In this document: positions 771 to 27,277 of the stretch, piece by piece
Layout: every line of letters starts with the position of its first letter
How positions within the stretch are numbered: position 1 is the stretch's first letter
Program-made: the position numbers and the translations under genes
Assembly (NCBI GenBank): GCA_008690995.1
Contig: VRMN01000005.1
Coordinates: 682,001 to 746,000, forward strand
Length of the DNA: 64,000 nt
Reading direction: 5' to 3'
Origin: Porphyridium purpureum
Taxonomy: Eukaryota
The notes under the pieces: model-generated
What the model saw: only the letters and a program-made list of their open reading frames with translations
The model's database searches: none
What the model was told of the DNA's origin: nothing

Positions 771-830
771 CGCGAGGGGGCCGGGGAAGGGGGCCGTGCG
801 AGGGGAGTTAAAGGGATTCGGCGCATAGGC

Positions 831-5070: not shown

Positions 5071-5449
5071 CGGAGCATATCCTCACAAAAGTTTTCGCAC
5101 TCTTGGATGTGAATACACACGCCCACGACCGCAAATATTTCTGCCTTGATCCGTGTCGTCTCTTGCGAGTAGAAACATATGTGTAGAGGAAAGCATGTCG
5201 ATGAATTTTGCCCCCTTCGCTCACTTTGAAGACCAACAATGCGATACCTTCCGTAGCTCGTCCCGCTCTGCCTCGGTATCTCCAGCCCACCCATGAGCGC
5301 GCGGCTCCACGGGTTTGCATTTGCACATGCAGGGCCTCGAAAGGCGTCCGGTAAATCGTTTACGCCGGGCGTAACGTAGCGATACAAAGTCACACCGTTG
5401 CCCAATACTACTTCGAGCTCCCAGCGAAGGAGAGGGAGGTGGTTTATGG

Positions 5450-6415
5450 ATGAAAACGCCAGTCCTTGTGGAGACAGCAAGCGAACCGATGAGAAAAACG
5501 AATAACGCGCGGGGTTCAAAGCGTAAGCGTACCGGCGTCGAACCAGGTGTGGAGCCAGTGGGTCCACGCGCGGTGCCATCCCATTTGGCTCGCGCAGCCC
5601 AGATGCAACGTGAACATGATGGTGCAAAGTCAATTGACATTGCGGATATCCGGCACTTGCACGACTTGGGTCGTGCGAGCGATGGTATGGCGGTCAGTGA
5701 CGACGACGGTGTTGTCCATCGACTGCTCCGCGTACTGATGTTCGCCACTGACGTGATAGAAGACCGTGCCCGGATCAAGGAGCTTGAGATGAGGGTAGCA
5801 GCATTGTCCCGGAAGGTCACAATATTGGAGACTCGGATACACGGGAGCGTCGCCGTTGACTCGCTGGATGTCCGCGATATTGAGACACCAAAGTCGGTAA
5901 TTGGTGACGTGAGCCTTGCACAGTTCACGAGAGCCGCCCCGATATCGGACGCAGTAGCCGGGAATATCCGCGACATTTACACTCGTAGATGCGGCATCGC
6001 AAAAACATGGCTGCGTTCCATAGCCCCGCATGACAGACCTTACCCATATGAACTGGTTCTTGCAAGATACGCCGGATGGCCATGGTGGCCGGCCGTGGTG
6101 GTTCTCAGTATTGACGGACTTGGCCCTGAAGTTCTTATGAAAGGGTGCGTGCGAGATACCTCTGAAGAAGGCCGCAAGAAAGCCGACGAAGATGTGATGA
6201 CATTGAGGAAGGGTTGCATCGTTGTCCGTTTCCTTGGGAAAAGCGCCGCATCTTTTGTGTGGGTCCTCATGGAGCACACACATATGAAGCACGATTTTAC
6301 CCTTGTGGATGGTACGCCGAAAGGGCGCACAAAGCCATCGAAAGAGTTGGCGTCGGCGTATGCCATGGCGAAACAGTATGCTGATATCAGACTCAACGGC
6401 GCAAAGACCCGTTGA
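5450..6415 (+). CDS. PWWP-domain protein (putative chromatin reader), with a coiled-coil-like segment
   Basis: ELVLARYAGWPWWPAVVV...CIVVRFLG..ASFVWV...F...ELASAYAMA at ~6041-6385 fits the PWWP pattern. N-terminal basic patch SKRKR is NLS-like. Confidence 0.8.
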   Translation: MKTPVLVETASEPMRKTNNARGSKRKRTGVEPGVEPVGPRAVPSHLARAAQMQREHDGAKSIDIADIRHLHDLGRASDGMAVSDDDGVVHRLLRVLMFATDVIEDRARIKELEMRVAALSRKVTILETRIHGSVAVDSLDVRDIETPKSVIGDVSLAQFTRAAPISDAVAGNIRDIYTRRCGIAKTWLRSIAPHDRPYPYELVLARYAGWPWWPAVVVLSIDGLGPEVLMKGCVRDTSEEGRKKADEDVMTLRKGCIVVRFLGKSAASFVWVLMEHTHMKHDFTLVDGTPKGRTKPSKELASAYAMAKQYADIRLNGAKTR

Positions 6416-6473
6416 TGACATTTTGTCTGCGCAAGGCGAGCAATAAACTCCATTTATAAGCAGTACACTATGT

Positions 6474-8108
6474 TCAAGGTTTCGTGTCCGAACCAGAATA
6501 TTCCATGTAGTCCAGGAACGAAGGTGCAGATGCCGCGGATGGTGCGCCCATAGCTTGTTCGATATCGTCGCTTTCATTCATTGAGTTCACCGTTGGAGCA
6601 TGTGAAGGTCGGGGCAAACGACTAACAGACGCGCGCGGGCAATTGATGAGGCGCAATTGAGTTGCACGATATCGGATGGCTCGACACAAGCGTAGGTCTC
6701 CGTCGTTGATTGCGATATCGCTGTCACGGACACAAATTCGGCCCTCTTCGTCCAGCTGTATGGAATGGATATCCGAGCGAAACCAGCGTCGGCATGTCTG
6801 GATACACTTCAATATGCCCATGAAGCCCTTCTCAGGCAGCTTTCCATCAGCCCAAGACGTATATGTTTCCCAGTGTATTGGAATATTCCATTCGTCTTCA
6901 TTATCTCCAGGCATGTCATCACTTTCCTCCGATCGGTCTTACCAGTCCGATGCGGTGTCATCACGTGCTTGACACACTTTCGATATCGATGGTGCCCGCG
7001 GTTGAGCCGAAGAGACAAAGAGGGAGTGCATCTGCAGCTTACACAGCCCTTCCAAGTTGAGTCCGATATCAGCAAACGGAAAGTCTTTTCCATCCTTCGC
7101 ACCCGAGCGCAGGCCCAACAGTGACAGCATGAGCGAGTTTGACCACAGTGTCGACGACCAAGCCTTGTCAGATTCGGAACCGTCCCTATCCGGACGTAGC
7201 CATATGGAGTCCGCTTCATCGATTTTCAGCTCACGACAAAGGACACTGTAGTATGGATCTCTTTCAAGCGCCAATATTGATCGGCCATACTTTCCCAGGA
7301 CCTGCGTGATTGCGCAGTAGATCGCAGTCATCCAAGTGATACCGATATCGAGAGCTTCCTTCTCCTCGTTTGGCGTGATGCGGTCATCCAGTGGAGCTAA
7401 ATTTGTACCATATGGTGATACTGGCGTTCCGAACTTTCTGTACAGTCTAGAACTTAATAATGGCCGACAGGCAAACGACTTGACCGGTTCCTCAACCGTC
7501 CCGTCTCGCGTTATGCAGTCGACGACGCGACGCGCGGTTCCCAAGTGGGCCTTGAAAGCTGCCGCGAGCGACAAACGAATATTCCTACGGAGCCTATTTT
7601 TGGCACCTTCCAGCGATTCCTGCATCAAAGTAGTAAGTGCTTCGTCTTCCATCATGGACGGAGGATCCACAAACCCAATGTCAGTGTACCACATGGTAAA
7701 CATTGTCAAGCCCGGCGATGCCGCTGGCGTGTACGGCTCGCGATGATCATATGTAGCGGCAAGGCGCTCGAACTTGCGCCAGAAGTCCATACAGCCCGTA
7801 CCCGCGTCGTCGACCTTTACAACAGCAGGTAACAGCCCACGATTCACAATATTGCGCACAAAGATATCGGTCGCGGAGCCTCTTCTGGCTCGCTTCTTCG
7901 CTCTGTCTTTCCCGCGGCGCCGCCGCCCAAAATTGGAGCCATCGACTGTGGAAGACAAGGCTGGTGTGACCACAGCCTCCGCCGGCGCGTCCTCGTCCCC
8001 CCGCAGCCGCCGGGCCACTGCGCTGCGCGACGATATCTCAGCGCTGCGACTCATTCTAATATTGACACCCGCGCCACGGACACGCGCACCCCTTCCCAAG
8101 TCTGCCAT
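6474..8108 (-). pseudogene. Uncharacterised ~540-codon gene with one in-frame TAA (6939-6941)
   Basis: ORFs 6939..8135 and 6474..6914 are in frame, separated by one stop and 8 sense codons. Probable ATG at 8108. Basic NLS-like RRRRGKDRAKKRARR. No recognised domain. Confidence 0.6.
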
Positions 8109-8391
8109 ATGGCGCGCCACCTTCGAGACGCACAAGTTCGCCTATCTCTCTTCTCCCCCTTGGCGAGAGCGCGCGCAAAAAGACAAGTCGAGATTGGAAA
8201 AATAGAGCTATTTTCATATGAAAACGTGACCTTTTGGACGTGACCCGTGTGGGGTGTTGGGGACGGGATCGCATGCCGGCAAGTTGCGAAGGGGTCGCTT
8301 GCTCGCGGAGAGAGAGGGGAGCGGCGATATCGCGACAGAGGCAGGTTCTGCGGAGACGGGGATTTGCCGGCTGACGACAGCACTTGTCCAT

Positions 8392-11300
8392 ATGGAACGC
8401 TCGCTCGATTCATACCGGGCGGAGGCATGGGAGCTGGAAGACTTGTACGTGTCCGGGGATATCACCCAGGATGACTTGGACGCCACTCCATATGGACAAA
8501 GGATGTGTTTCGGGCCGCTGCTGCCGCCCGATCTTCTGCAGGTCTCTCGGGTGCGGCGCACGGAAGCCTTGCGCCGTGACGAGACGGCCGCGTCGGACCC
8601 GATGTCTCACGCCGATATTGGAGCCCGCGAGGCGCACCTGGGCATCGCTGTGAGCCATGCCTTTTTGATGTACTTCAGCAATATTGTTGGAGCTCTCAAG
8701 TGTCCACGTGGCGGCGTCACGGTGGCCCACTGGATCGCAGAAACCCCATATGGGCAGCATCACTATTCAGCCCATATGGGAGAGCGGGAGGTGGCACTGT
8801 ATCGCATGTTTCTGGCGGCGCAGCGCACGGAACGCCTCTTTGCGTGGTCATATGACGAATTCACGGGTGCGGTTGCCGACCAAAGTGCTCCGCGCCAGCT
8901 TTCATATGGACATAAGCGCAGGCGCACTGACGCAGGTGCACTCGGATATCCGAGCCGTGCACGCATTGAAGAGAGTCTAGACTTGGAGGCATGGCTGCTG
9001 AAGCAGAGATGCGAGTGGCCTCGCCGCCTGACAACCGTTGGCCCATATGAGCTCAGCCCAAAGCCGACGCGAAGTGACGGCTGGAACAGCGCATATGCTC
9101 ATTTTTACCATTTGCGCTCGCTTATGCCTACTGCGTACGGTGCGCCATCATATGATGCTGCGTTGGTGGTTCGCGGCCACGATGATGCGGTGGAGCGCAT
9201 CTCGAGGCTTACTCGCAACGCTTATCGGCTTCCTCAATTGCCGCGCAATATTGCATGCCCGTGCAACACAACAGGATACCCGGCCGTCATCTTCGTCCAC
9301 GAAGGCCCAAGGCTCCATGTGGAGACGATGCGGACACGTCCGCGCAGGGCAAGAGACGGTGACGAATTGTTCCCGAAGGGATGCTTGGCGCGCTTAGAAC
9401 GCATCCGCGCCGTGCGCGTGATGATGGACTTTGCGACAACGCTCCTCGATATCAGCACGTATGCTACCATATGGTTTGGCAGAGATGCTGCTCTTGCGCA
9501 TATGCGAAACTTGGTCCAAGAGCTCCGGAGCCGTGTCGTATCCGCTGACTACTCGGGGTCGGTCTTCCCATATGGGCCCACCGAGATGGATGAACAGCCG
9601 CAAAGGGTGTTTCGCTGGCCGCCACACCATACAGAGTATCATGGGCGCCGGCTGCGCGAAGCCTTCAGGATGGAAAACGTCCCGACCCAGCAGATTTCTG
9701 CAGATGGGCAGACTTATACCGTCCCACGCTACTCCGAGAGGCACGCCGTCGACATATGTGTAGCACGGCTGCGGAGCGCTCAGCTGTATGCTTGGCCTTC
9801 GATTGCGAGGACGCAATTGTATGCGTTCCGGGACGCGATAAATCCAGATGGAATGCACGTCCCGGAGTTACTCGCACCACGCTTCGATGTCGGCATGTGC
9901 AACATCCTGGAATGGGGCATTGAGCTATGGGACCACACGGTAGAGGCGCACAATCGAATATTCGCACATGTGACGCATGACTACCTGTAGGACGACCTGC
10001 CCGAACTGCATGCCACACCGAGGGACACGGACTTGGCCATTGCCAAGGTGTTTGGCAGCTTCCATATGGAGCACGGAGGTAGCAGGATCAACTTTGGCCT
10101 TCCTGAAGACCTCAATATTGATGCAGCCTCGCACGCAGCATCCATCGAGCTCGACACGGCAGCAATCCAGTATTGGAAGGCGCAAGAGACTGCCTTTGCC
10201 TGGGATCGGGGGAGCAGCAGCGTGTGGGTGCAATGGTTATCTGGCAACGTGACCCGAAGACATACGTACCGCGGACACCAGTGCACATCTAATGTGCGAT
10301 CAATAGAGTATGGGGGGTCCGCGCCATATAGTGTCTGGGTCGCCATGCTCAGGCGATTGTGGACGGATGGCTGGCAGCTGCAGAGGGGCCTTGAACGTGC
10401 GGCGGAGATGCTACCACGCCCATCCGAGCCGCGCACGCCACATGGCACCCGTGTTGAGGAGCCTTTTGCCCCGCAAACGTACCGCACGTCCAGCCTCGCA
10501 GGCGGTACTTATGGGCATATGCGATTGCCAGCGGCCAGCCAAAGTTGGAGCGATGTGGACATCGTGCGAAGCCCGATATCGGCATCTGCGCGTGCACTTC
10601 CGGCGTCCGCACACGTGGATATCCAAGACTGCTTGATCTGTCAATTTCCGGTGACAGACCAGTTCATCTACGAGTGCACGACCCTGCACCCGACATGCAC
10701 TAGCTGCCTGCGCATGACATATGCCTTTAAGGTGGCGAACATGTACAGCATAGAACTGTCGAACTTTCACGTGGATGACAGGTTCATGCGCAATTATAGC
10801 ATGTGCGAATTGTGCAGGAAGGCCGTTGGCGTCTGCCGCATATGCGAACAAAATTACGCATTCGCGCCCTTCCTTTTTGCCGGCGCAATCTGTACGGAAG
10901 GCTTCTCGGACGCTTTCGTCGACCATATGGAGAGATGTCTTTTAACATGGCACGTCACAGATTTTGCTGCCTTGGCCGGCTGCATCGCCGAACCCAGAAG
11001 CTCGGGCAGGTGGCGGATGTCCACGAACCCACCGCTCGTCGAACTGGTAGCAAGCCAGGCGCGGCGCCACTTCGCGCACAGCATATGCCACAATATTGTT
11101 CGCATAATGCTCGTCGAAATGCGCCGGGCCCGGGCTCGCCAGATGAGTTTACCAGTGGAGGATATCCAGGAGTTGCTGGGGTATTTCCCTGGAAATCGAC
11201 GCAGGCCGTATGGAATATCCCGCAAGCTTGCGTTTGACGTTCTGGACACGCGCCGATTTCCTGTGTGGGACGATATCGTCAACGAGTACAACATGTACTG

Positions 11301-11682
11301 GGATATCCGACCGGTCGTACAGGCAATTGGCTCGAGCCCAGATTGGCCTCACCCGCCGAACTTGCCCTGGTGCCAACATATGAACAGTACGTGGCGACCT
11401 GGGTATATCCGGCATTATCCGGGTCAGCGCATAATGGAGGATATCCTTTCATATGAGCAACAGCGGGCTCGCTGCTGGTGCAATTACTTCGTGTCGGAAA
11501 CCAAGCTCCGCATGCGGCAGGCACTAAGCGATCATTTGGTCTCGCTGCAGGAAGGCGGCACCGGGTTAATACCGCCGCGACTGCAAGAGCTTTGCGTGTG
11601 CGACGAGTGCAGGACAGGGCAAGGCGTGGCTGCTCATATGAGAAGATACCCAGGGCTGGCGGACGACATGAAGATCGCGTGA
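8392..11682 (+). pseudogene. ~1100-codon C3HC4 RING-finger-containing gene with one in-frame TAG (9988-9990)
   Basis: ORFs 8254..9990 and 10033..11682 share a frame with only one TAG between them. CLIC-x11-C-x3-H-x2-C-x2-C-x~32-CELC at ~10630-10815. First in-frame ATG at 8392. Confidence 0.65.
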
Positions 11683-11752
11683 TAGCTTGCCAAGAAGGCC
11701 ATCGCATATGCGAACCACGGCCTCGTGACGGGGCCGTTCAATACTTACCAGG

Positions 11753-12010
11753 TGTTATCCGCCGACCCCGCGGATACCTAGTCTTGCGGGATCCTTGCTG
11801 TGGCCTTGCTGTGGCCTTGCTGGAACCTTGCTGGTCCACTGTCATTTTTCTCACAGTGCTACCCGGCGAGCTGGAGAACACGGGGCGGCAGTCTATAAAA
11901 AGGCGTGGAGACCCGCGAGCAGGCTCGGGGACAAAAAAGAAGAAGAGAGAGAGGAGCGAAGGGGAGAGAAGAAGGAGAGGGAAAGTAAAAGGAAAAGGAG
12001 GTTCATAACA
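11753..12010 (+). mobile_element. Solo LTR (258 bp) with 5-bp target-site duplication CCAGG
   Basis: Begins TGTTAT and ends ATAACA. CCAGG at 11748-11752 and 12011-12015. Internal TATAAAA (~11894) followed by a purine-rich tract. Confidence 0.9.
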
Positions 12011-12285
12011 CCAGGTGCCGTCAATATTGACGTGGTCACTGAGTCAATGCCGTGACCACGCTCACAGCACAGAATGATCCATGTAGACGGGGTACAGGAA
12101 GTTGAAATATATTAAATATTAATAAATTCAAAAAAATAATTCTTTGGCGTAGAAAACAAAACTTGTTGTCCCTGGAGGTACAGCCAGACCAAATGGTTAC
12201 GAGGAACCCTAAAATCCTTAACTGTTAAGGATTTTAGTATTAACGAATTACATGTCCGCATTAGTGGAAAGTATGAACGGGAGTG

Positions 12286-15200
12286 TCAACGGGCGAGTAA
12301 CCTTAAATACACGGTTGTGGATGTCCACTCGTCAACGCATTCGTGGTGGGCTAGCATATACGCTTCGAAGCTTCCGGATGAAGGTACAAGAACACAATCC
12401 TGGATTATCTTTTTCAATGCAATGTTCGACCTGCTGTAGCGCGTGCCCGGCGCGAGCTCTGCACGGATGACCTGGAGTATGCGGTGCTTGAATCCGATGA
12501 AACTCTTATTGTGCTCCTCGGCCAATTCGAAATACTTGCTGGCAAGCTCCGTTCGGAGCTTGCGATTCATCTGACCGATCCTCATCGAGGTCTCTTCCCC
12601 CGTATGCCGCATTCTTGACCATGTCGTTGTTCTGCGCGAAATGAGTCCATCCGGTTCGAAGAGAATTCGAAGCTTGATCAGTTCATCCGATATCGTGCGC
12701 ACTTGTCCGTAGTCAGCGTATTCGGACATAGCGTCAATATCAGGATCTCTCATACGTTGCTGAAAACCATTGTTGTTCAGATCCTTGGGCTCGACGAGGA
12801 TCTGCCACGAATGCAAGAAATGTGGCGTCGGATTCAACCACATCAATACTTCTGGCACATTTGCAAATATCGCAGCCGTACAAGAATCCGTATGCATCGT
12901 CCTAGTGATTGAATCAATGTATCCGGGTGAGAGCCATACGCGCGGTGGCATTTCCCATGATCTTGCCGACGTTCGACGGCGACGCGAACCCACCTTGTAT
13001 TCGTATTTGTCATCTTCCACCGGATTCTCAGCACGACGAAATAGATCCCATGTAAATTCGACAATCGCTGGAACTGCACGAACGAAGTATTCGATGATAT
13101 CATTCATTGCCGGATCATGCTTTTCGTAGTCCTTGAATACATATCGGCTCTGAAAGTGGTCCACGATCTGCCGCGTGATACGAATTTGAGCTGCAAAGTA
13201 ATGCCATGCGATGTGATAGCGTGCGACCCACAGTCGTGTATGAAGTTCGCTGAATCGATTATACTGGTCCATTCGAAAGCTCCTTCCGTGTTTATCCGAA
13301 TCAGCGTGATGGCGCGTTACATCGAATACAGGCCATTGCCTCCTCCATTCAATCACACTTTCTACTCGCACCTGGAACGACGGCCAGTAGGCACAGATCT
13401 CATGGAATGCAGTAATCGTATGCACGCTCGATAGGTATGAACCACTCGGATAACCATTCACTGTATCCATTTCTGGCGAGAAGCTCGTGGAGGTATCCGA
13501 ATATTTTCTGAGCACCTGGTCATACGCGAAAACATCAATTTCCTTTGTTTCAGCGAGCAACATTCGCCGCGTCACTTGATTCCGACCGAATCCAACCCTG
13601 GCATCCATCGACCGTTTGTAATACGCATGTTCATATGCTGCTTCGATGCATCGTTGTTCTTGATCACCCCCCCATCGTTTTCTTCCGGCACAACAAGAAT
13701 CGATGTGCGTATCGGATGCCACGCAGCACATCCTGAAGAGGATGAACCGGAAGGCGCTCCACAGTGCCAATCGGATTCGTATACACATCTTCGTAAGAGA
13801 AATCATCGCATGAACATCCGTATCGAGAATCACATTTGTTTCCCATCGAAGCCGTATGCGTGTATCGACATGGTCTGTATGCCATACAGGCAAGCGCGCC
13901 TTGGACTGCGCAAGTCACCGCATACCATTCGTTGGCTAGAGATTCAAAGTGACCTAAGGCATCAAATCCACGTCGCATCTCCGCTGGTTGCATTAATTCC
14001 GTATTATCCATCGGATGTGCAAATCGGAGCCTTGCGTACGCATTATTCATATTCAAGGCATTGATACGGATTAGATCCCAGAGCATTGCTGTATCTCTCA
14101 GCATCCATGAAAACATGCCGCTATCCGCTATCGTGAAGCCAGTTGGGTCTGATGGATGATTCATCACCCGAATAATATAATCCTCGGATGCAAACTTTCG
14201 TCCTCGGTAACCCGTCGTCTTCTTCGTCGCCAGGTGGGGTACCTTCTGAATGAGGTACGCACCGATATCCGCGTGCAGGAATTGACAGTCATCCGAAGTA
14301 AACGCGAATTCATCCGTAAAGTATTCGTCTACTGTGTAGTTGCTGTACAGCAGCGCATTCGGAAGCTCTGCACCGTTATGGTCTTCGCGTGGAGAGTCTT
14401 CGCACGGAGTGACTTCGAAAAATTCGAGCCCGGTCAGACCGTCGGTGAAATTCTGATGCGGATCTTTGTTCTCGAACGACCATGCCGTAAGCATTCGCAT
14501 GTAGAAGTCGACGTTCAGAATCACATCCAAAAGATGCAGACCCACCTTGTCATTTTCCTTGGCCTCTATGTGAATGGCCTTATACGTATTCTCACTTGCA
14601 TCCTTGTACATCGCACTGAATCGATCTATGATATCGTAATGCGAAAAGCCTCGTCTGATGGACTTAGGTTGCTGCATCGGATGACTGCTTCGACCGAGAG
14701 TGCACGTATCTGTCCGTGCACGCTTCGGATCCTGACGTGAAGCAAATATCCCAGGCACATTTCGGATATCACTTCGAATTTCTCCTCGGATATAGCTAGC
14801 TCCCGGATCGTCTTCGCGGCTGTATGAAGCCGTGTCATACTTGACATTCCCATATCCGCGGGGAATCTGTCCCGGGCGCGGGAGCGAACTGCTTCCTCGC
14901 CTTTCGAATGGCGCACGGTACGTTCCGGATCCAGAACCACTTGGCATATCAATTCTACCATACCCAGGCGGGCCTCGTAGCGTTTTCTGGGTATTCGGAT
15001 TCAGCGCAGCGGCCCCAAGTCGCAGCGAACTCGCCGAATTACTACGGATGAGTCCACCACGAATGCGACGGCTGCGCTCATCAGCATCCGATGCTTCACT
15101 ACTTTCGATCGAATCCGACATTCGTCGTTTCCCTTTGTCAACAGTCGAGACCCTTTTCGATCGCCGAGTATTCGGATTCACGTCAGACTCAGCATGCTGT

Positions 15201-15919
15201 CCTGAAGGTGCGTTCGAATCACGCAAATTCGTTCCAGGCGTTCTCTTGACACGCATATCCGTATCCATTTTCGCAGCGTCCAACGAATCTCCGGATGCAT
15301 ATTTCTCTGCACCAGCACCTGCTGCAGGTAGTCCGGTATCCGCTGGAAGGTGTCCGCGCAATGCTCTTGCCGACACACTCTGCGAATCCGACGACACAGA
15401 AACCGCGCGAATCGGAGATCGACGGCCAACACTGGACATGGATGTGGTCGACTTCTTCGCAGTATCCGAAGCCTTTCCCACGATATCGGACGGTTTCGCA
15501 CCGACGTCCTTCACTGGATCCTCCTTCGGATTTGCACCGACGTCCTTCACTAGATCCTCCTTCGGATTCGTCTCCGCGTCCGCGCATTTCGCACCAATCG
15601 GATCACCTACCGCAGCCGTCTCAACTGAAGCCGTAGCTGGCGCGGACTCCGACGGCACTTTTTCCACATCCCTCTCAACTTCATCATTCGGATGACCTCG
15701 GACGGCTGCCTTCAGTTTCGACGATGCTCCTCGCACTGCCGAACCCTGACCCGCACCGGACGCACGCCCAGGCTCCACCTTTTTCGTCGCCGCCGGATAC
15801 GTCGCTTTACCCCCCTTGCCCTGCGCACTTCCGGATACCACTTTCCTTCCTTTCGACGGATTCGGATCCGCCACTTTCTTCCCGGTGTTCTCCATCTCGT
15901 CCCGCTCACCACCACTCAC
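12286..15919 (-). pseudogene. Large uncharacterised gene (~1200 codons), divergent from transposase 2, probably one gene with a frameshift near 13.7-13.9 kb
   Basis: Overlapping ORFs 13664..15919 and 12286..13893; the latter frame is open from 13914. Low-complexity N-terminal third includes a 12-aa duplication NPKED(L/P)VKDVGA. Aromatic-rich, globular-looking C-terminal part. No recognised domain. Confidence 0.6.
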
Positions 15920-18900
15920 GCACCCGCACTGTCCACCTCCGCGCTACCGCGCTACCGCCCTCTCCGCCTTGTCCGCCTTGTCCGCCTTCCCAGCGCTTCC
16001 TACCTTCGCACAACCCACCTTCTCCGGATCACACCAACTTCCCCACACGACCTGCTCTTCGCCACACGGCCACTGCGGCCTGCGCGTTTGACTTGTATCG
16101 AATTTGATGGACCCAAATGAAAAAAATGGCAGAATTGAATGGCATGTGGGGTTTTGTCGGGAAAATTACGCATTCACAGAGAGAAAGCTTTACATTAACT
16201 ACCTCTTTGGCTTGCCGTGGTACAAACGCTACGCCTGCGTCCAGGAAAGACACGCGCGTCGGATTGACGGAAGGCTTTGGAGGCGGAACGGATACAGCGT
16301 GACGTGCGCGAAAACATACGGATAGGAAGACTTCCCCAAACCGCGAATGGACAGACAGCAAGGCCTCGAGAGCAACGCTTGGCATCGACGTAGAAACAAA
16401 CGTATCCGATGCGATGGGACCCGATGCGACTTCACCGTACCAGAGGATGAGGGATTGACTTACTCCACGCGACTTCACATGATGCAGTCACACAAGCGCA
16501 AATGTAAACTTCGCATGCATCCGAATCGACTCCCGTATACGCAGGCCTACTTATTTGATGCGGACGACGGTAGTTTGCGGAGGGAGGACAGTCCGGATGA
16601 TACGGGAAGCGCAAATACAGAAACGATGACTGGACGAGGCAGTGAGCTTCCTGATATCCGGATGGATGACGAGGACCCGGAAATGCAATTTCATTCGGAT
16701 CGTGACATTGACAGCGGTTGCGAGAGCTTGCATGCAAACCTGACACAGGATGCGGAAATGTATCTAAGACCGATGGAGCCGGTGCGTTGCGGAGAAGAAG
16801 GAGAAGAGCAAGTCGAATATATCTTAGGTCCGTATGCCAAGCACTTTACTGCGTTATTAAACCAAAAGACTTTACGAGAGCGCTTGCAAGATCGTGACGA
16901 CGAGATGTCAAAATTCGTACGGAGTCTGACAGGCGCGGGTGAAATGGAAGATGTTGATCTGGATGAAGCAATCGAGATGATACGATTAAAAACGACCAGG
17001 AAGTATTCATCCAGAAGCATGGGATATCCGTACGTCATGCCACGGACTTAAAGTCGATTGAAACCAAACTCTTACAAATTGCTATCCGTATGACTCAGCG
17101 CCAAGTAAGCCAGCTGACAAAACACTCATTTACCATGTTGAAAAGGTATCCGTTAAACCACGAGGCGTCTCGAATCGACGCTGTATACGCTGCATTACAA
17201 AGCAAATTGAACATAGCTTCCTCTCACGTGCTGAAACGAGCAACAAAACTTCTTTTCATATTCAGATCTTCGAAGCGGATGTCTTCGCTTCTTGGCAATC
17301 CGAGTATTAAACCTGTTGAGACGTACGTCGAGTATGGTCGCGGAATCCGACTGAGACGAAACACCCTACGCCGGAACGTGAAGCAAACGATCCGATTTCG
17401 TGAATCGATGGACATCGTCATGCGTTCAGCTGCAGCTATTATTGATGAATACGGATTGGAGCCATTCGTTATCGACTTATTCAAAACCCGGGATCGCGAA
17501 ATAGTGATGCATCCGCAGGATGGAAACCTCTGCATCAGCGCAGCCCGTCGGATAGAATTTGAAGTGAATCGAAAACATGGACCGGATCCACCTCAGGTTG
17601 TAATTCTTCCAATACAGATATTTGCGGATGAGTCCCATATGACCCAGAATGGACGACACACAGTCACGCCACTGAAGATACGAATAGTACATCGAAGGCT
17701 GTTTGATACACACTCTTCCCGTATTCCTCAAGTCGTCGCATACTTACCACCTGTGGATACCCGAAGTATTGCACGAGCATTTGGTGAGGAAACAAGTATC
17801 CGCATTGATCCGAAGCTAGCCAAAAGAGAGCTCGAATCGTCCATGTACCATGCAATTATGAATAAGGCATTCCACCATCTCATGATCGCGAATAAATTCG
17901 GAGTGCCAGTCCTGTGGAATCATCGCCGCTTGCTTCTTTTTCCTATTGCATACAAGTTGTCAATGGACATGCCGATGATCTCAAAATGCTCATTTACGAA
18001 AGCTTCTTTTGTATCCGGATCCCGTGCTCGAACCATGCCATGCCATCAATGCATGGTGATAGCACCAGAGGCCACAACTCGAGCAGTCGAAGCAGGACCA
18101 AAGTCGGATGCATCCAAGGCAGAAGAGTTCTGGATTACGCGTATTCCTCTGCAATATCGCTGTGAGAAGCAGGTTGAACCTTTCATCACGCAGAATTTAT
18201 CTGCATGGGGCACGCTACAGAGAAAAGAACAATCTCTCCACTTTCTCGGTGACTCAGCGGCTATCGGATGGAATCGATTTGATGATGCCGATGACGTTGC
18301 ATTCAATGCAACGATATCCGCATTCAAACACAAAATACATCTGCGCAACCGCGGGAGATTTCAACTGACAGGCATAGATGGCTTGCACGGATTCCTTGCA
18401 TTTTGGCTTCGAGGTATCACAGTCGCTGGTCTCAAAGCATTGCTGAGCAAACCGAATACTGTACACGAGGTAGGCCTCGTCGCTGAGAGACTCACGGAAG
18501 CGCAGCAGCGAGCTACGCGACACTTGAACGAAGTAGAACATTCGGATTTTCCACGCATGTGGGCTTCACTCGATTTCGATGAACAAAGACATGGAAGTGC
18601 ATCCGAAGATACCAGTGGCGATGATTCAGAGTCGCATGACGAATACTCTTCGGATGATGAAATTGTCCGCGCGAATGAAAGAAATTCGTCACAAACGAAT
18701 ACACGTCAAAGACCAAAGGCCAAAACAAAGACGAACGACTCTCACATCAATCCGAGGAGGGCAGAGTCCAACAGAAAGGGCAGCGTATCTGACCAACTTC
18801 GAGGTATCATTGACTCAGCAGCAGGTAAAGCTTGGAACCAAATTGCAACGAAGATAACGGATGAGGCGAGGTTCCGGCGACCAGCGACATACTCTCCGAT

Positions 18901-19845
18901 ACGATTATCTTCGTTTTTATCCGACTTACCCAAATTCGCAGAACAATCATATTCGCTGGGCTTTCTACTTCAAATGATTGTTCTTGTACACCAGGAGCAT
19001 TTACTCTCGGATCGTACACGTGAAAGCTTTACCGAACTTGCAACCAGATGTATCCGACTGTATGGCGTACTATACAAAGAAAAGCTGCGTCGACCATGGC
19101 TTGAACTCATCCCAAGGCTCACATCCGACTTGCAATCCCGACTCGATTTATACAAACGGCAGATCAATCTACGTTGGAATGCTCCGAAAATACATGCACT
19201 GTCTCACTTCGGGGACAACTTGACGGATCTGGGACCGATAAAGTTTTGGGATACTACGGATGGAGAGAAATCGTTTCAAATCGGCAAGGCGTGGTTCAAA
19301 TCACTGGTCAGCGCAGATACGAATATCCCACATAATGTCATGCTGCAGCGCGCAGAGGTGTTCGAAATCGGATCTTCTTCTTCGTACTGGTTTGATAAAC
19401 TTACAAGGAACAAGGATTCGAATGCAATTGCATATACACACGAACAAGTATCCGATAAAGCATACACACATACACGAGAATCGGATGCCGCTCGAGCGTG
19501 GTACCGGCACCGCTCGTCTTCTGTGAACTGTTCATCGATCCTTTTCGGAATTTGGCAGAACGCGTGCACTACTCTGACGTACAGCAGCGAATCCGGATTT
19601 GAGGCTGCCCCTTCATGGCGACCAACGGCATGGAACCCTTCTATATCATTCGAATCCGCTGATGACGAAGAAACGAACATGCTCTGGTTGCACACGGATA
19701 CGGCTTTGAAGACGTATGCATCCGAGAAACTCCAAACGGCTGTGACTGATGATACTGCAACCTTCCAAGCTTTCAGACAAGTTCAACTGAAAAAGCCTTG
19801 CGACGAAGCCGAATGCATTGTTGCACATCCGAATCACTATCGTTC

Positions 19846-20104
19846 TGTCAATTAATTAAATAATTAATTAACTCTCGCTGTACCTACAGGGGTACAGCCC
19901 CCCTCAATATAACCACTTGGTTATAATGAGGGTCTCCATCTCTCTCCCTGCTAGTCCTAGTATAAAACTACGCCGAGTCGCGGCCGGCCTAGCCGTCAAA
20001 AAGTAAACAGACAGAGTCGACAGAAAAGAAGAAGAGTTCATAAAACTTTGTTGGGTCGCCGAGATAGCTTGGCAACTCGGCTCTCAGATCCGTAGGGATT
20101 GACA
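19846..20104 (+). repeat. 5' LTR of the Copia element
   Basis: Direct repeat of 26304-26562 with 7 substitutions by my comparison. Contains TATAAAA. Confidence 0.95.
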
Positions 20105-20605
20105 TTAGCTAATTACGTTCCTAACGGTGAAAGAATACAAGTGACTGAAGACAGATGACGCGACCGACGCGGAATACCGCGGGCGCGGGTGGAAGTAGTG
20201 TCACGGGAGTAGCCCGTGTGTTAAGGAAATGATTAAAAAATAGCCATAGTCCGTGGCCGGATACCTGGTCGCGCCGGACCCACTGTACTGTAGGTGTACA
20301 AGGGGGCGCGTGGTAGGCCTGAAGGCCCCTACCCTTAGGGACCAGACGCGCGATGACCACCCAGTATGGAATGGGTGTACAGCCAGGAGGTGGCTGGAAC
20401 CTTCTGGAAGGTTCTAGACTCAGCGACAGCAAGGCACTGTACCTCGGGGGTACAGTGGTCGCAATGGGTATAAAAAGACGCGCGGGTCGGCAACCAAGGG
20501 GGGGAGAGGGGGGCCGGGAGACAGAAGGAGTAAGGTGGATCTAAGTAAAAACAGGTGTATGCAAGGAAGCGTGTTCGGGCCTTGGGTACCTGTTGAGGAG
20601 CGGGG

Positions 20606-20646
20606 GTACAGCGGGAGTACAGCGGGAGTACAGCGGGAGTACAGCG
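20606..20646 (+). repeat. 11-bp tandem repeat (GTACAGCGGGA x~3.7) in the Copia leader
   Basis: Read directly from the sequence. Confidence 0.85.
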
Positions 20647-21076
20647 CGAGCGAGCGAGCGGGGGGTTTAACGGGGAAGGTTCGCGGATGCCCTGGGGTAA
20701 GGCGTCATTAGACGGTCCTTGTTCGGAAGCGGATCCGGGGGTGGTACGTGGGCGGGGGCGGATAAAGGAGTGATAGGCCGTTTGAAGCCGAAAGGTGAGG
20801 TAACCTCCTCTGGCTAACCCCGGCTGCCCACAACGCCTCCCCGGGTCCCGGATCACCGTAAGGTGTGGCCGAACGGGATCCCGGTTGGGCAGCGGACGCC
20901 TGGTTCCCCCGTTACGCGCGTCTTCCGTGTGTGTGCTTTTGGTTGGCTGTGCCTGCTCCGTGCGTGTGCTCTTGGTTGGCTGTGTCTTTCCCGTGTGTCT
21001 GCTCTTGGTTGGTTCTGTCGGTCCCGTGTGTGGGTGCTCTTGGCTGTTTGCGTGTGAGCAGCGTGCGTGAGCGTCG

Positions 21077-22771
21077 TTGGTTCCGGGTTTCCTGCCTGCC
21101 GCAGGTCCAGTTGACTGCGGGTGTCTTGTGTTTCCTCTTGGTTGCGTGGATTGTCCAGCTTGTGTGCGTGCGTGTGCCGCTTGGCTTGCTGTTGGGTGTG
21201 CCGCTGTGTCCTGGGCCAGCACGGTTCGTGACAGTAGCGACGGAGACCGTCGAATTGGCGCTGCAGCGGAGCAATCTCCGGATCAAGATACACAGGTAAA
21301 TATAGAGACAAATCGTGAGGACATTCGTCTGGTCTCCGCGGGTGTTGCCGATACTTCCATTACGACAGCTTTGGCTTCGATCGATTTATCCGGTTTCTCC
21401 TTTGAGAAGAGACTTGCCATAGAAGATCTGCAAGAATTTGTCACGATGTTCCGTCAGTACAACGGTGTAGCTCTCATGACGCAGATGGTACGTCGCTTAC
21501 CATTTTCGAGCATCATGAACGCTGGAATCCTCGCCAGAGAAGAATTTGTTTCCTTTTTAATGAATACGGAAGTTCCAGGATTCCGTGCGACGGATCCACG
21601 CGTTTCTACAGAGGAGAAGTTTCGTCGAATTTATGACAACGCGCGTAGCACATCGATCGATCAAGGAAGCACGGTGCGAGCTGATGAGCCATCGCCATCC
21701 AACCATCGCACGGGATCACGCGACGGCGAGGTCTCAGGCATGGCTGCTATTTCGCTCTTGACCAGTTCGAATCCCGCAACCGGTCGGACATTGGCACAGA
21801 GCGCGGCGGATATGTCAAAACTCGTGCGCTCGGATATGATTTTCCACATGGATGAGTTCGTTGACAAAGTTTCGTATCGAGCTTGGAAAGAAGAACTCGC
21901 GCTCTCTTTCGTGCGAGCGGAGGTTGCCGCTGAGCACCGTCCGCTCCTCGTTGGGCTTACTTTGGGCGGCGCAATTAAGGAGCACTACCAGCAAAATGCG
22001 CGTTATGACGCACCTATTTCAGATGTTTTTGCAATTCTCGACAACAAGGTGTTTTCAGGTGAATACAACGAACACATGATGCACAATTTCGAAACAACAA
22101 AGTTTAGTGACTTGGTTGTACGCATGCGGGGGGCTCGGACCAAAGCAATTCTTTATAATCTGTATCATCGAGTGCTGAAGTATGCACAAAACTGGTTACC
22201 GGATGAATACCTCGGAGACAAACGTCTTCTGCGTGCCTTGCGCAACGCGGTTTAAGACGAGCACTTCGCATCCGGCGTACTTCTCAAGAATTTCGACAAA
22301 GGCGACGATCTATACGAACACCTCGCTGGCTGCTTGAACAGGCGTGCGCGTTAACGCACCGACAATTCCGATCGGAGAATCCACGCCAACGCTGCGAACA
22401 CGCGACAACTCGTAGAAGGGCCGATCGCCACTTCGCATCGCCCGCTTTTCGCTCGCGATCTACGTCATGTACGTGATCAAGATTCCCGTCGCGCAAATCA
22501 TGCAGACAGTCGGGCATGTCTTAACTGCAATCAACCCGGTCATCTTTTTCGCGCGTGTCCTTCGCCTCTGCGTCCAGAGCTGCAACGTCAGCTTGCAACA
22601 CAGCCTGTCCGTTCACTCCTCCAGACATTTGATTTCGAATATGACTGTACATCGACCGCACAAGAACCGACTGAGTCGCCGGACGACACACAACAGGATG
22701 ATGAGTTTTATGGTCCCGTCCCATACGCACAGAATGATTCGGGGGAAGAGCACGGGGTTCCGGACAACTGA
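21077..22771 (+). pseudogene. gag: Copia gag with two internal TAA stops
   Basis: ORF 21077..22255 continues in frame past two TAA stops to a zinc knuckle CLNCNQPGHLFRAC (22517-22558). The frame ends at TGA 22769-22771. Confidence 0.8.
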
Positions 22772-22806
22772 TAACCAATTCGGGACCCCTATATTCGGAC
22801 TACGAG

Positions 22807-25800
22807 ATGTGGGCCTTACTTCAAAGTAATGCGGCGCGCATCATGCGCAGCCACAGTGCGATCAACGTATCATGGCGAAAGTCCTTTTGGGGCATATGCG
22901 TGGATACAGGTGCAGTGAAAAGTTTCTGTTCACTGCCGCAATGGCTTGAATTTTGTCGCGTCGTAAACCAGAGCACTACTTTACGCTCGGCCAAATTCTA
23001 CAGTCATTCTTTGGACATCGGTCTGCTGCATTCGCTGGGCTCCGGGACTGCTCGTCTTCCCATCACATCTGATTTGATTTTAACCTTTGATGTTGACGTT
23101 CTGGATACTCGTCGTCAAACTGATCCAAATTGGCCACCGATGGTCCTCGGTTTAGAAGATTTGGATGCGGCTCGGTGCTACGTGAACAACTTGGACAATT
23201 CACTGGTCTTCGAACGCGTTCGCTACCGATTAGTTCGACGTCTTCGCCGTCTTTTTCTGGTACCGGACTTTGAACATGTGTCCAATGTATTATTGACATA
23301 CGCCGAGCTTCGGAAAATTCATCGCAAGTTTGCACACGCGTCGGCGGACCGTCTGGCACACATTTTTGATGTGGCTGACGCTCCGCTATCCAATGATGAT
23401 ATCAACTCTCTTCGCGAACTGACCAAGTCCTGCCACATATGTCAACGATTTGCTCGAGCACCGCGTCATTTCCAATTGTCCGCTTCTGTTGATGTAGTTT
23501 TCAATCATACAGTGGTTATGGATCACTTCTCACTCCTTCAATCTTCGACACAACGTCAGCGCGCTGTCATGCATATCATATGCGAAAGCACGAGGTTCCA
23601 GGTTGGGCAGTGGATGCCAGAAGATTGTACCGCGCGGGCGCTATGGGAAATGTTTACTTTATGTTGGGCAACTGCGTACACTGGCTATCCGCACATCATC
23701 AAAGTCGACGCCGGCTCAACGCACGGTAGCGCCGAATTCAAGTCTCTAGCGTCGGCTTATTCTGTGCATGTGGCTGTGCAGCCCATCGAAGGTCATCATA
23801 GTATCGGTCGCGTCGAACGCGCGCATGGGATCATTCGTGACATGTATGACAAGATTGTGGAAGCTGATGTTGACGCGGATGACGACGAAGCTCTTTCGCA
23901 GTGCTTTTTCATTGCCAACAGCTTTCCCAGCCATTCGTCTATTCCTCCGTGTTTGATGGTTTTTGGAACACTGCCGCGCCTTCTCATCGCGTCAGTTGAG
24001 TCCGTTCCTTCGCAAGCGCAACGCATTCGTGCAATCCTCATCGCTCGCAGAAGCTTCGAAGAATACATTGCGAAATCCTATTTGAATACGGCACTGCGAC
24101 GACGGCATCAAGCCGCCACGCCTTCAGACGATCTTTACCCTCAGCCAGGGGCCTTCGTTCTTGTGGCTCGCGAATCTACCAAAAGGGGCCGCAAGTACAC
24201 ACGCTACGAAGGCCCTTGTCTATGCAGTTCCGTATCTGGTAATTCGGTCGGTATTTGTATGCCGCCAACAGGCTCGGTGCGACATTATCATGTGAATCAC
24301 GTCAGACGCTACATCTCAGATGATCACATATCAACGTCCGCGCTACTAACACGACCTGTCACCGCGGCTGAATTTCGCTCCAACACAGCCTTACGAGAGC
24401 AGTTTTACAACAGCGACATAGAAGAACTCAAGTGGCTTTATTCTCGTGGCGTTTTTGAGCGTGCGGACAAAATTGCCAAATGTGCAATTATCCTACCAGC
24501 GTCCATGGTTCGTGTTTTCAAAAATGCGGAAACTGCAAATCCGATTCCGAAATCCAGACTTGTTGCGCTTGGCAACTTGGATCCAGACAAGAAGAATATC
24601 GTCGTTGAGAGCCCAATGCTATCCATGTGGGGCTTCCGTGTCATTCTTAGTATCGCAGCCAACCGCGGCTGGCAGCTGTTTACGATTGATGCCAAGAAGG
24701 CGTACGTGCAGAGTTCGAGCGCGCTGCGGCGTCCTATCTTCCTTGTTTTGCGGTCACCGCTCAGCAATTTATTTGCCACAGCAATATCCTCGCCGTGTTC
24801 GGGGTCGCGAATATATTTGAAGCTGTTGAAGCCACTGTATGGCCTCACGGAAGCTGGTACATACTGGTGGTTTACCATCCATGATGCTCTATGTACTTTG
24901 CATTTGAGTGTTTCGCCTCTTGACATGTGCTTCTTCTATTCTTCTTTTGGCCTAGTTGGCGTCCTGAGCGACAATCTTATATACTGCGGCACTGACCAAT
25001 TTGTCCACGACCTTCAACAAGTCTTGGAAGCTTTTGTCATGTCCGCTGTGGAAAGTCCGCCCATGAACTTCAATGGTTGTGTCGTACTGTCCAATCCTAT
25101 TCGCATCTCGTCCACAGCCTTCGTCGACAGCCTTTTATCATGTGATTTGACAACATTACCGTTGCCTCAGGTTCGCGGCAAATTTCGCTGGCTAGCGTCG
25201 CTGTCCCGACCAGATTTGTACACCGCAGTACCAGACAAAGTCGATAACGCTGGTTGGCTTTCTACCATTCGTCGCAAGCTTATGGATACTCGCAACTTCG
25301 CCTTGCCGTTTATTCCTCTTACAAACTCGCTAGAACTATGTGCATACGCAGATGCGGCCTTTTCTGTTGATGACACGTTGCGCAGCCGTCTCGGATGGAC
25401 TATTTTCTTGCGCGACGCCACGGGTCTGGCCCATTTTCTGCAAGCGCGATCATTCAAGTCAGCTCGCGTCGTTCGCTCCGTTCTTGCCGCTGAAATTTAT
25501 GCGCTGTCCGATTGCCTTGACTTTGTTCTTGCGCTTCGCGATTCGCTGTTGCCCATTTATAATGTGCTGATACCGATTCGGCTCTTTACCGATTCGCAGT
25601 CAATCTTTGACACTGTCCATCGTTGTCGTACCATTCAAGAGAAGCGTTTGATGATCGACGTTACCATTCTACGTGATGCCGTGCGCGAGAATACCGTCAC
25701 GGATCTGTCACACATTCGTGCTCCGGACAACATAGCAGACTCCTTGACCAAGCAGGGCACCCGGGAGTCCATGTGGCTAACATTCTACAGAGACGGACGG

Positions 25801-25857
25801 CTCGTCCATCCAGTTCATCTTAGCACGGCACCGATCAAGCATTCGCCCGACCAATAA
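22807..25857 (+). CDS. pol: Copia pol (protease-integrase-RT-RNase H)
   Basis: CVDTGA protease; HRKFAH..CHIC integrase Zn finger and DDE core; KSRLVALG, IDAKKAYVQ and KPLYGL RT motifs; YADAAF, AAE, TDSQS and NIADSLTK RNase H motifs. The RT YxDD position reads LSDN. Confidence 0.92.
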   Translation: MWALLQSNAARIMRSHSAINVSWRKSFWGICVDTGAVKSFCSLPQWLEFCRVVNQSTTLRSAKFYSHSLDIGLLHSLGSGTARLPITSDLILTFDVDVLDTRRQTDPNWPPMVLGLEDLDAARCYVNNLDNSLVFERVRYRLVRRLRRLFLVPDFEHVSNVLLTYAELRKIHRKFAHASADRLAHIFDVADAPLSNDDINSLRELTKSCHICQRFARAPRHFQLSASVDVVFNHTVVMDHFSLLQSSTQRQRAVMHIICESTRFQVGQWMPEDCTARALWEMFTLCWATAYTGYPHIIKVDAGSTHGSAEFKSLASAYSVHVAVQPIEGHHSIGRVERAHGIIRDMYDKIVEADVDADDDEALSQCFFIANSFPSHSSIPPCLMVFGTLPRLLIASVESVPSQAQRIRAILIARRSFEEYIAKSYLNTALRRRHQAATPSDDLYPQPGAFVLVARESTKRGRKYTRYEGPCLCSSVSGNSVGICMPPTGSVRHYHVNHVRRYISDDHISTSALLTRPVTAAEFRSNTALREQFYNSDIEELKWLYSRGVFERADKIAKCAIILPASMVRVFKNAETANPIPKSRLVALGNLDPDKKNIVVESPMLSMWGFRVILSIAANRGWQLFTIDAKKAYVQSSSALRRPIFLVLRSPLSNLFATAISSPCSGSRIYLKLLKPLYGLTEAGTYWWFTIHDALCTLHLSVSPLDMCFFYSSFGLVGVLSDNLIYCGTDQFVHDLQQVLEAFVMSAVESPPMNFNGCVVLSNPIRISSTAFVDSLLSCDLTTLPLPQVRGKFRWLASLSRPDLYTAVPDKVDNAGWLSTIRRKLMDTRNFALPFIPLTNSLELCAYADAAFSVDDTLRSRLGWTIFLRDATGLAHFLQARSFKSARVVRSVLAAEIYALSDCLDFVLALRDSLLPIYNVLIPIRLFTDSQSIFDTVHRCRTIQEKRLMIDVTILRDAVRENTVTDLSHIRAPDNIADSLTKQGTRESMWLTFYRDGRLVHPVHLSTAPIKHSPDQ

Positions 25858-26303
25858 CCAGGCCCGCGTCCTGTCGCACCATTTGTAGGTGCTGACGCCA
25901 GCTCGCAGCGTAACCCATGCAAGTTCATGGTCAAGACGCCGACCATTTTCGCTCAAGTTCTGTCTGCAACGGTTCCGTGGCACACCACGGATGATTCCGA
26001 CGACCTTTCGCCCATTGCAGGCACCGTGTCCGACATGCGCCCAAGTGATCCTGCCCGCAAACCGATTCTCGCCTTGCGCAGTCCCTCGCGAAACGCCTTC
26101 TCCGTCGCCAACAGGTCCGCTTTTTCGTGCGGGGGACTTTCCTCGGGTACTCGCTGCGTTGGCGTTCTCGAAATTTCATTCTCGCAATCTGTTCTCATCG
26201 AGATGAACTTGCTCCTCTTCTCGTCATCTCGTGCGCCCCTGCCCCACGTCGGTCTCATGTTTCAATGAATTTTATAACATGACCCAGCAGAAAAATACTG
26301 GAG

Positions 26304-26562
26304 TGTCAATTAATTAAATAATTAATTAACTCTCGCTGTACCCACAGGGGTGCAGCCCCCCTCACTATAACCACTTGGTTATAATGAGGGTCTCCATCTC
26401 TCTCCCTGCTAGCCCTAGTATAAAACTACGCCGAGTCGCGGCCGGCCTAGCCGTCAAAAAGTAAACAGACAGAGTCGACAGAAAAGAAGAAGAGTTCATA
26501 AAACTTTCTTGGGTCGCCGAGATAGCTTGGCAACTCGGCTCTCGGATCCGTAGGGACTGACA
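26304..26562 (+). repeat. 3' LTR of the Copia element
   Basis: Direct repeat of 19846-20104. Confidence 0.95.
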
Positions 26563-27037
26563 TGTTCTCCGAGATGGGACATTCTCGAATACACACTACA
26601 AACTGGTCACCCTGAACGCCACGGATATGGAAAATGCATCCTAATTGTCCGGATCAAATTACAGGGACCTTACGACAAATCCTTTGACGTGGTGGTGATA
26701 CAAGATTTAGAGGCGCACGATGGAGAAATCGACAAGTCGGAGCGCATATGCAAATGCAAGCGCCTAGATCCGGTGTTGCATCAAACCCTACTAAGTAATA
26801 ATTCGGTAAGATTGTTAGACACGGCGAAGATAACCGGACGAGTGACAGCATTCAAGGATATCCGCATGAAGAACAGCCGATGGTACTACGTTTAAACCCA
26901 AGCATATTCGAAGGCGTGTTAGAATAAAATTAAAAGTCGGAGTCCAATGAAGTTTCATCTTTGCATGATTAAACCTATATGCTACCACCCATCTCGCAAA
27001 GTTTAAAGTTGTAGGCGGCACCACACAGTTTGTCGTT

Positions 27038-27277
27038 AGTTTTTCGGGAAGTTTTTCGGGAAGTTTTTCGGGAAGTTTTTCGAGAAGTTTTTCGAGAAGT
27101 TTTTCGGGCAGGTTTTCGGGCAGGTTTTCGGGCAGGTTTTCGGGCAGGTTTTCGGGCAGGTTTTCGGGCAGGTTTTCGGGCAGGTTTTCGGGCAGGTTTT
27201 CGGGCAGTTTTTCTGGCAATTTTTCGGGCAGTTTTTCGGGCACTTTTGGGACAGTTTTTGGGACAGTTTTCCGGGCA
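27038..27277 (+). repeat. 12-bp tandem array AG(G/T)TTTTCGGG(C/A), about 20 units, downstream of transposase 2
   Basis: Read directly. Further degenerate CAGTTTT(T)C copies continue to ~27510. Confidence 0.95.

Follow-up and report, generated by a model that had tools for sequence, protein, structure and literature searches.

A stretch of 64,000 nucleotides from the red alga Porphyridium purpureum (assembly GCA_008690995.1, contig VRMN01000005.1, positions 682,001 to 746,000; hereafter the window, with positions counted from its first letter) holds a DNA transposon that resembles CACTA/Plavaka elements and has decayed in this copy. Besides its transposase the element has an orphan partner gene, and the pentamer ATCCG runs densely through both. 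We consider it about an even bet (probability roughly 0.5) that this array offers serial docking sites to a sequence-specific protein with a footprint of about 20 bases, which would probably be encoded by the element and whose likeliest role would be to act against repressive chromatin. Taken separately, binding of the array by a sequence-specific protein is highly probable, an origin of that protein within the element is reasonably favoured, and an action against repressive chromatin is suggested tentatively.

An earlier sequence-only reading of the interval 12250..19845 had reported about 33 ATNCGNAT octamers where about 2 were expected. A direct count in this 7.6-kb interval gave exactly 33, spanning 12886-19834, with 17 in the minus-strand partner gene, 15 in the transposase gene (transposase 2) and one just upstream of the latter; the expectation had been set too low, as dinucleotide shuffles give 3.9 (maximum 10, n=300). 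The other 56 kb of the window hold 14. As had been stated, the octamer is nearly absent from the inserted Copia retrotransposon (1) and from the neighbouring ATAT block (0); one more lies in the tail of transposase 2, and the paralogous transposase 1 (830-4745) has few, six by our count where about five had been given. The reported abundance of half sites was confirmed as well, with 207 ATHCG against 70.7 in dinucleotide shuffles. A first-order Markov model puts ATCCG/CGGAT first among 5-mers (100 vs 25), ahead of ATACG (40 vs 14) and ATTCG (67 vs 32). ATGCG is not in excess (30 vs 27.6 expected).

The main unit of the motif is an asymmetric pentamer, ATCCG > ATTCG > ATACG, rather than the dyad centred on CpG that had been proposed. 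The dyad is an overlap of two pentamers, genuine but secondary, with a modest preference: half-site frequencies predict 22.6 octamers where 33 are found (Fisher p 0.009), and 66 of the 237 ATNCG half sites lie inside octamers. The N positions are usually non-complementary, as had been noted, with perfect palindromes in 6/33 octamers. The AT-centred overlap CGNATNCG is not enriched (17 vs 22.8 expected), and the flanks of ATCCG lean weakly toward G-N-ATCCG-A-A-T. Over 12324..19845 the motif lattice comprises, on both strands, 97 CpGs within ATCCG, spaced 78 bp apart on average, 179 within ATHCG, with an average spacing of 42 bp, and the 33 ATNCGNAT. ATCCG reaches a density of 13.3/kb here; transposase 1 has 2.8/kb and the remaining window 1.6/kb.

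The motifs are embedded in coding DNA, as the sequence-only reading held: 96 of the 100 ATCCG are coding, and they lie outside tandem repeats. Codon usage was controlled by shuffles in which synonymous codons were permuted inside each gene (n=500), a conservative null because the motif itself has shaped codon usage. Coding ATCCG still stood at 96 vs 38.5 (z 10.8), to which the minus-strand gene contributed 50 vs 24.3 and transposase 2 contributed 46 vs 13.9. The octamers stood at 17 vs 7.9 (z 4.1, maximum 14) and 15 vs 4.8 (z 6.9, maximum 10) in the two genes, respectively. All three frames contain half sites, and the two orientations are equally represented; the sites are therefore not the product of codon, amino-acid or transcription-strand bias.

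The spacing of the sites points to a bound protein. The coefficient of variation of the distances between motif CpGs is 0.72, compared with 0.95 for random subsets of the CpGs of the element (0/5000 as even) and 0.97-1.20 for five other words of this DNA used as controls. This evenness results from local exclusion at 1-21 bp, a cut-off picked post hoc after inspection of the data but reproduced in the ATAT block: 6 pairs of ATCCG fall within this distance where 24.3 are expected (0/3000 random sets), a four-fold depletion found in the minus-strand gene (5 vs 13.4) and in transposase 2 (1 vs 9.8), while pairs 22-41 bp apart are at their normal number (25 vs 24.8). Codon shuffles give no short-range gap (ratio 1.10). 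The depletion ratio of 0.25 is the inverse of the four-fold enrichment, as would be expected when a second site per protein footprint brings no gain, and the pattern as a whole fits a bound protein with a benefit that saturates per footprint. No longer periodicity, at nucleosome scale or 10 bp, is seen in the element, and the orientations of the ATCCG sites are mixed, with no fixed order.

In favour of an artefact of composition, codon usage or assembly, codon control reduces the excess of octamers, about 8-fold without it, to about 2.5-fold. However, the counts beat all 500 own-codon shuffles in each gene, the spacing structure is not found in the controls, and the word recurs in independent contigs and in another protein record. 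The own-codon shuffles together with the spacing controls refute the artefact, which we regard as extremely improbable. The sequence-only reading had named two outcomes that would speak against it, loss of the excess under codon and dinucleotide controls and absence of the motif from other genomic copies; the excess persists, and other copies have the motif.

There is no general CpG depletion in the element outside the motif (432 vs 467 expected), and the idea that the motif protects its CpG was dropped on these counts. Avoidance of GATC was likewise dropped, its signal vanishing under codon shuffles. N6-methyladenine at ApT, deposited by AMT1, follows a V-AT-B rule; the bases preceding ATCCG (n=100: A 23, C 31, G 17, T 29) fit no such rule, and this candidate was also discarded.

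Comparison with transposase 1 suggests how the sites arose. Across 939 aligned codons ATCCG occurs 39 times in transposase 2 and 8 times in transposase 1, with 3 in common. The sites of transposase 2 stand at differing amino acids in 28/39 cases, and the differences from transposase 1 hit all five motif positions through many substitution types. Where the amino acids are identical, a possible ATCCG is used in 11/19 contexts in transposase 2 and 4/19 in transposase 1. The word has shaped the protein sequence, with amino-acid changes being tolerated. Only 80/239 four-fold sites are identical between the two genes, which is near saturation, and the direction of substitution is therefore unreadable from this pair.

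The same observations bear on a neutral ratchet, in which a modification or repair activity targeted to the element turns near-sites into ATCCG or slows their loss, an occupied site shielding about 20 bases. Tolerated amino-acid changes would suit such a process, and so would the twelve one-step neighbours of ATCCG, which total 182 against 213.9 in own-codon shuffles (0.85); a model of this kind has been proposed for the cyanobacterial HIP1 in the accessible text of PMC4390886. However, a mutator acting along one path would need to drain a neighbour, and the lowest ratio for any of them is 0.61 (own-codon shuffles), which argues against one mutational path. The neighbours total 0.97 against the codon usage of transposase 1, a Pfam scan of the element recognised neither a methylase nor a deaminase, and a family-specific DNA-binding activity would still be required. 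We regard the ratchet as quite unlikely.

The ATCCG word is common to other genomic copies and to independent contigs. We analysed the best-supported 40 of 402 differences between the window and these contigs, less 4 that lie left of 12324, leaving 36. The amino-acid changes they imply in the minus-strand gene agree with the protein record P0005, from another genomic copy, in 14/14 cases, and the contigs therefore represent other copies. A diverged fragment covers 4 of these sites and agrees with P0005 at each, so that the window copy is the derived one. A single half-site change was found among the 36 differences, a gain in the window copy. Losses of half sites in the window copy number 0 vs 3.8 expected (p 0.018), and losses of ATCCG only 0 vs 2.4 expected (p 0.087). 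This sparing of the motif is suggestive only. The coding differences are non-synonymous in 19/29 cases, and the window copy looks dead; the absence of losses in an apparently dead copy is a further point for the ratchet.

Further records of the partner protein carry the locus tags FVE85_2428, 1213, 8532, 8504/8505 and 9446, the last a 75% identical fragment. At about 13290 in the minus-strand gene the other partner-gene records are all broken, by a split gene or a predicted intron, while the window copy is open there; the window copy is itself frameshifted, and consequently no fully intact partner copy is on record. A partner subfamily about 85% alike in DNA was also seen, with contigs X1-1, X1-2, X4-17 and X4-18 on 12324-13952 and the protein P0014.

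Words of this kind differ between families. When the 16 XYNCG classes are compared, AT leads in both genes of the element (z 7.0 and 8.1), whereas CA leads in transposase 1 (830..4745, plus strand), with 83 vs 51.5 (maximum 68, n=300), including CATCG at 38 vs 20. Transposase 1 is a paralogue with 53% amino-acid identity for its family representative, and its own word is CATCG/CANCG. Its family consists of five records, and its copy in the window has a stop at 3915-3917 where the other copies have W. The words can also be recovered from protein by ranking 512 5-mers from amino-acid order against local shuffles: ATCCG ranks 1/512 for P0005 (z 4.5), CATCG ranks 1/512 for the transposase 1 family, and ATATC/ATATG rank 2 and 3 for the ATAT block, in each case matching the word in DNA. 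For a third transposase family (P0003/P0010) GAATC comes first (z 5.4), and it is predicted that this family would carry GAATC in its DNA.

The sequence-only reading had proposed a family-specific binding site for an element-encoded protein. The element-specific word and the footprint-like spacing support this. Since the paralogues have words of their own with no partner homologue detected, the transposase is an equally good candidate. Neither of the other two transposase families yielded a homologue of the partner gene, which favours the transposase as the binder. The favoured candidate would be the transposase, with an N-terminal Cys/His cluster that varies among paralogues, and the partner protein would come second. 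Partner copies lie 6-10 locus tags away from third-family transposases at three loci.

A host factor could be the binder instead, for example a general transcription or nucleosome-displacing protein, each mobile family having drifted to the word of another host factor. Enrichment, even spacing and the footprint gap are accounted for equally well in this way, expression of the almost silent element genes is not required, and the ATAT block shows the same anatomy with no transposase recognised. However, six host genes show no more ATCCG than expected (12 vs 15.8), and the words CATCG, ATCCG and GAATC of the paralogues are near variants, as if one homologous binder had drifted. We regard a host factor as unlikely.

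The ATAT block (5600..11700) served as a comparator, with evenly spaced CATATG/GATATC and the same short-range exclusion (4 vs 15.5 pairs). Variants touching ATAT were 0/33 vs 1.5 expected, too few to decide. CATATG is counted 29 vs 2.0 and GATATC 22 vs 1.5 in this block, which has a spacing coefficient of variation of 0.65 and orphan open reading frames (ORFs), and is transcribed at a low level from copies about 95% alike. No homologues of an ATAT-block ORF were found. At the edge of the block, an ORF at 5375-6415 encodes a PWWP domain (Pfam E 1.7e-6) and is overlapped by an ORF on the opposite strand; it would be a chromatin reader within multi-copy DNA. An insert at 11753-12009 resembles a solo long terminal repeat (LTR), with TG..CA ends and a CCAGG duplication; the block's other copies lack it, and it is transcribed very strongly from other loci.

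The orphan partner gene of the element, FVE85_4213 (12324..15895, minus strand), would encode about 1200 amino acids with a low-complexity basic N-terminus of about 410 residues, a Cys/His cluster at 13870-13808 and a C-half predicted to be helical. The window copy is frameshifted by one additional base at 13667, and its 3' end is substituted by other sequence at 12321/12324. The head-to-head intergenic region (15896..16346) has the lowest motif density of the element, with one ATCCG in 16001-16250, and is spanned by contigs of other copies or strains. Transposase 2 (FVE85_4214; 16347..19845, plus strand) is CMC/CACTA/Plavaka-like, with an N-terminal C-x4-C...H-x3-C cluster at 16410-16505 and motifs at 17621 (FADES), 17960 (SMDMP), 18038 (C(2)C), 19190 (H(3)H) and 19256 (TDGEK). 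One base is deleted at 16985; neither this frameshift nor that at 13667 is present in contigs of any run covering them. At 19845 the gene is interrupted by a Copia LTR retrotransposon (19846..26562, plus strand), whose 260-bp LTRs are 97% identical and whose 5-bp target duplication contains one mismatch. Apart from the single octamer counted above, this retrotransposon is without the motif. Beyond it the tail of transposase 2 picks up (26568..26930, plus strand), with another frameshift near its end; here the motif resumes, with 4 ATCCG in 367 bp. Subterminal 12-bp tandem repeats of the AGTTTTTCGGGA type follow (27038..27271, plus strand). They contain zero ATHCG, and are therefore a signal separate from the ATCCG array. 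Members of the CMCT clade have 5'-CA..TG-3' termini, terminal inverted repeats and a target duplication of 2-5 bp; no matching terminus of the element was found in the window, its left end missing at the junction 12321/12324.

In this species transposase 2 has two paralogous families, 53% and 37% identical. The motif order D..D..C(2)C..H(3)H..E is present in all three families, and FADE, SMDMP, PCxQC, KIHALS/THF and TDGEK are kept in four sequences from them; the catalytic roles of these residues are assigned from motif order alone. The accessible text of PMC12730594 defines the CMCT clade by this order. Transposase 2 matched no Pfam family and no PDB entry that would name its superfamily, which we leave unassigned, calling the transposase CMC-like by motif order. 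No relative turned up in metagenome, viral or prokaryote collections, and among 1.84 billion protein representatives relatives of the partner protein were found in Porphyridium only.

In the mechanism that we favour, each new site would give a small advantage to the copy, the four-fold enrichment corresponding to about 1.4 natural-log units per site. Sites would be gained singly by substitution, even where amino acids had to change, and a second site in an occupied footprint would bring no benefit, leaving close pairs at background. The specificity of the binder would drift among paralogous families (CATCG, ATCCG and the predicted GAATC), providing each with a private address. The likeliest purpose would be to coat the element and keep off the repressive chromatin of the host. 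The array may alternatively serve as a scaffold for transposition, the transposase coating and compacting an element of >15 kb for synapsis with no role in silencing. The sequence evidence for this is identical to that for an anti-silencing coat, and the lack of CpG decay, like the use of both orientations in no fixed order, is compatible with it. However, separate subterminal repeats without ATCCG exist, and an identical anatomy is seen in the ATAT block, which has no recognised transposase. A structural scaffold is very unlikely.

Several observations weigh against docking sites for an element-encoded protein that counters silencing. No DNA-binding domain was recognised in transposase 2 or the partner protein (Pfam, PDB), two structure predictions for the latter gave no usable fold (predicted local distance difference test scores of 26 and 33), and its best atlas match, 0.79, is under chance level. 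In the protein-only test ATCCG comes only 13th for transposase 2, the top z values of control proteins are 3.0-4.2, and the P0014 fragment shows no signal (rank 141), with 19/28 of its motif sites still encodable against a background of 60%. At identical amino acids ATHCG overall stands at 20/43 in transposase 2 and 16/43 in transposase 1, CATCG in transposase 1 has no clear exclusion zone, and an equal anatomy exists in the ATAT block, where no transposase was recognised. Sparing of the motif in a dead copy fits lower mutation equally with selection. Both element genes are almost silent, with depths of 0-3 in three RNA runs of one study (ATAT-block genes 8-38, transposase 1 up to 8), so that no active anti-silencing is seen. 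Finally, neither LTRs nor inverted repeats show CpG decay when their two arms are compared: the Copia LTRs differ at CpG in 1/7 cases, with CpG making up 10% of sites, and two inverted-repeat pairs gave no clear excess, at 7/20 when CpG-plus-other differences were counted, with 5/20 at 22% of sites and 4/12 at 13%.

We found no Porphyridium methylome or DNA methyltransferase set in the open-access literature. The supplement of PMC10538959 gives a single methylase entry for Galdieria and another for Cyanidioschyzon, with no row for Porphyridium, and Porphyridium is absent from the accessible text and supplements of PMC12695648. In Cyanidioschyzon, 5-methylcytosine (5mC) is at background and Polycomb repressive complex 2 (PRC2) silences transposons, according to the available text of 10.1101/2022.10.24.513474. 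By analogy, silencing of the PRC2 type may also operate in Porphyridium.

By analogy, the array would work like the addressing of VANC and TnpA, with an anatomy nearer to bacterial HIP1 or uptake sequences. VANC proteins of Arabidopsis VANDAL elements had been named as the closest precedent. A short motif built up in one family and differing in relatives, the importance of density and an accessory gene adjoining the transposase are indeed shared, as far as the accessible text of PMC5735166 goes. However, the VANC21/VANC6 motifs described there are 9 bp, mainly non-coding, in one orientation and multiplied by tandem repeats, the authors holding that base substitution is hardly sufficient for their origin, whereas the red-algal word is 5 bp, coding, dispersed in both orientations and kept apart by a 21-bp gap. 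The partner protein has no homology to VANC (DUF1985) and no Pfam match, the transposase is CMC-like and not Mutator, and the link to methylation is unsupported in view of the missing CpG decay. TnpA of Spm/CACTA and the AtMu1 transposase are sequence-specific activators binding family-specific motifs (10.64898/2026.08.24.746577, in the text available), which provides a precedent for an element-encoded binder. Spm belongs to the same broad transposase clade, its motif is family-specific and contains CpG, and the transposase itself can bind; however, in that account the motifs cluster at the termini and their effect is confined to these, whereas the red-algal word is interior and the subterminal repeats lack it.

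With HIP1, as described in the accessible parts of PMC5861425 and PMC4390886, the array shares a CG-containing word enriched in coding DNA in all frames with non-random spacing, and the debate between selection and a mutational ratchet; HIP1 is, however, genome-wide, bacterial and a perfect palindrome with known methylases. The red-algal word is confined to the element, asymmetric (6/33 octamers palindromic) and not enriched in host genes. To our knowledge, no process of biased uptake acts on a nuclear transposon. DNA uptake sequences of Pasteurellaceae and Neisseria also accumulate in genes and enrich encoded peptides, but are driven by biased uptake across whole bacterial genomes (PMC2817400, accessible text). 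The CMCT clade (EnSpm/CACTA, Plavaka), as far as described in PMC12730594, has the same catalytic motif order, subterminal repeats and an accessory gene; the red-algal transposase differs in having no Pfam match and its accessory gene in having no TET/JBP match. A TET/JBP dioxygenase was looked for in the partner protein at the sequence level only, with no Pfam match and no relative outside Porphyridium.

Words centred on GTAC were also seen in the Copia LTR and leader (19846-20700) and in an inverted-repeat element (41148-43217), with GTAC at 130 vs 70 in 27400-64000 and no enrichment in coding DNA. A long imperfect inverted repeat at 41268-42450 (arms of 241 + 106 bp, 86-90%) is foldback-like or resembles a miniature inverted-repeat transposable element.

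The literature on sequence-specific self-recognition of transposons turned up plant systems only, and open-access sources yielded no description of a family-specific motif spread at even spacing through the coding DNA of a transposon. We tentatively propose, with less confidence than for the docking sites, that each mobile element of Porphyridium uses point substitutions to write a private address of 5-6 bases (CATCG, ATCCG, GAATC, SATATS) into its coding DNA, with roughly one site to a footprint, to be read by an element protein whose specificity changes along with the family. Such an address would provide a self-recognition coat over the whole element, unlike the terminal or tandem-repeat arrays of VANC/TnpA; it could be read from protein alone and would probably counter methylation-independent chromatin silencing. 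Self-recognition of transposons is known from a few flowering-plant families, with sites in non-coding repeats. What would be new here is an address inside genes, at amino-acid cost, with a measurable footprint and differing among paralogues of one small red-algal genome. P. purpureum is transformable, and the system allows a direct test of the co-divergence of binder and site. It also offers a prediction made blind to the DNA, namely GAATC in the third family, and a way of screening for such words by protein sequence alone. Furthermore, it bears on how transposons may resist silencing in a lineage where Cyanidioschyzon uses Polycomb, not 5mC.

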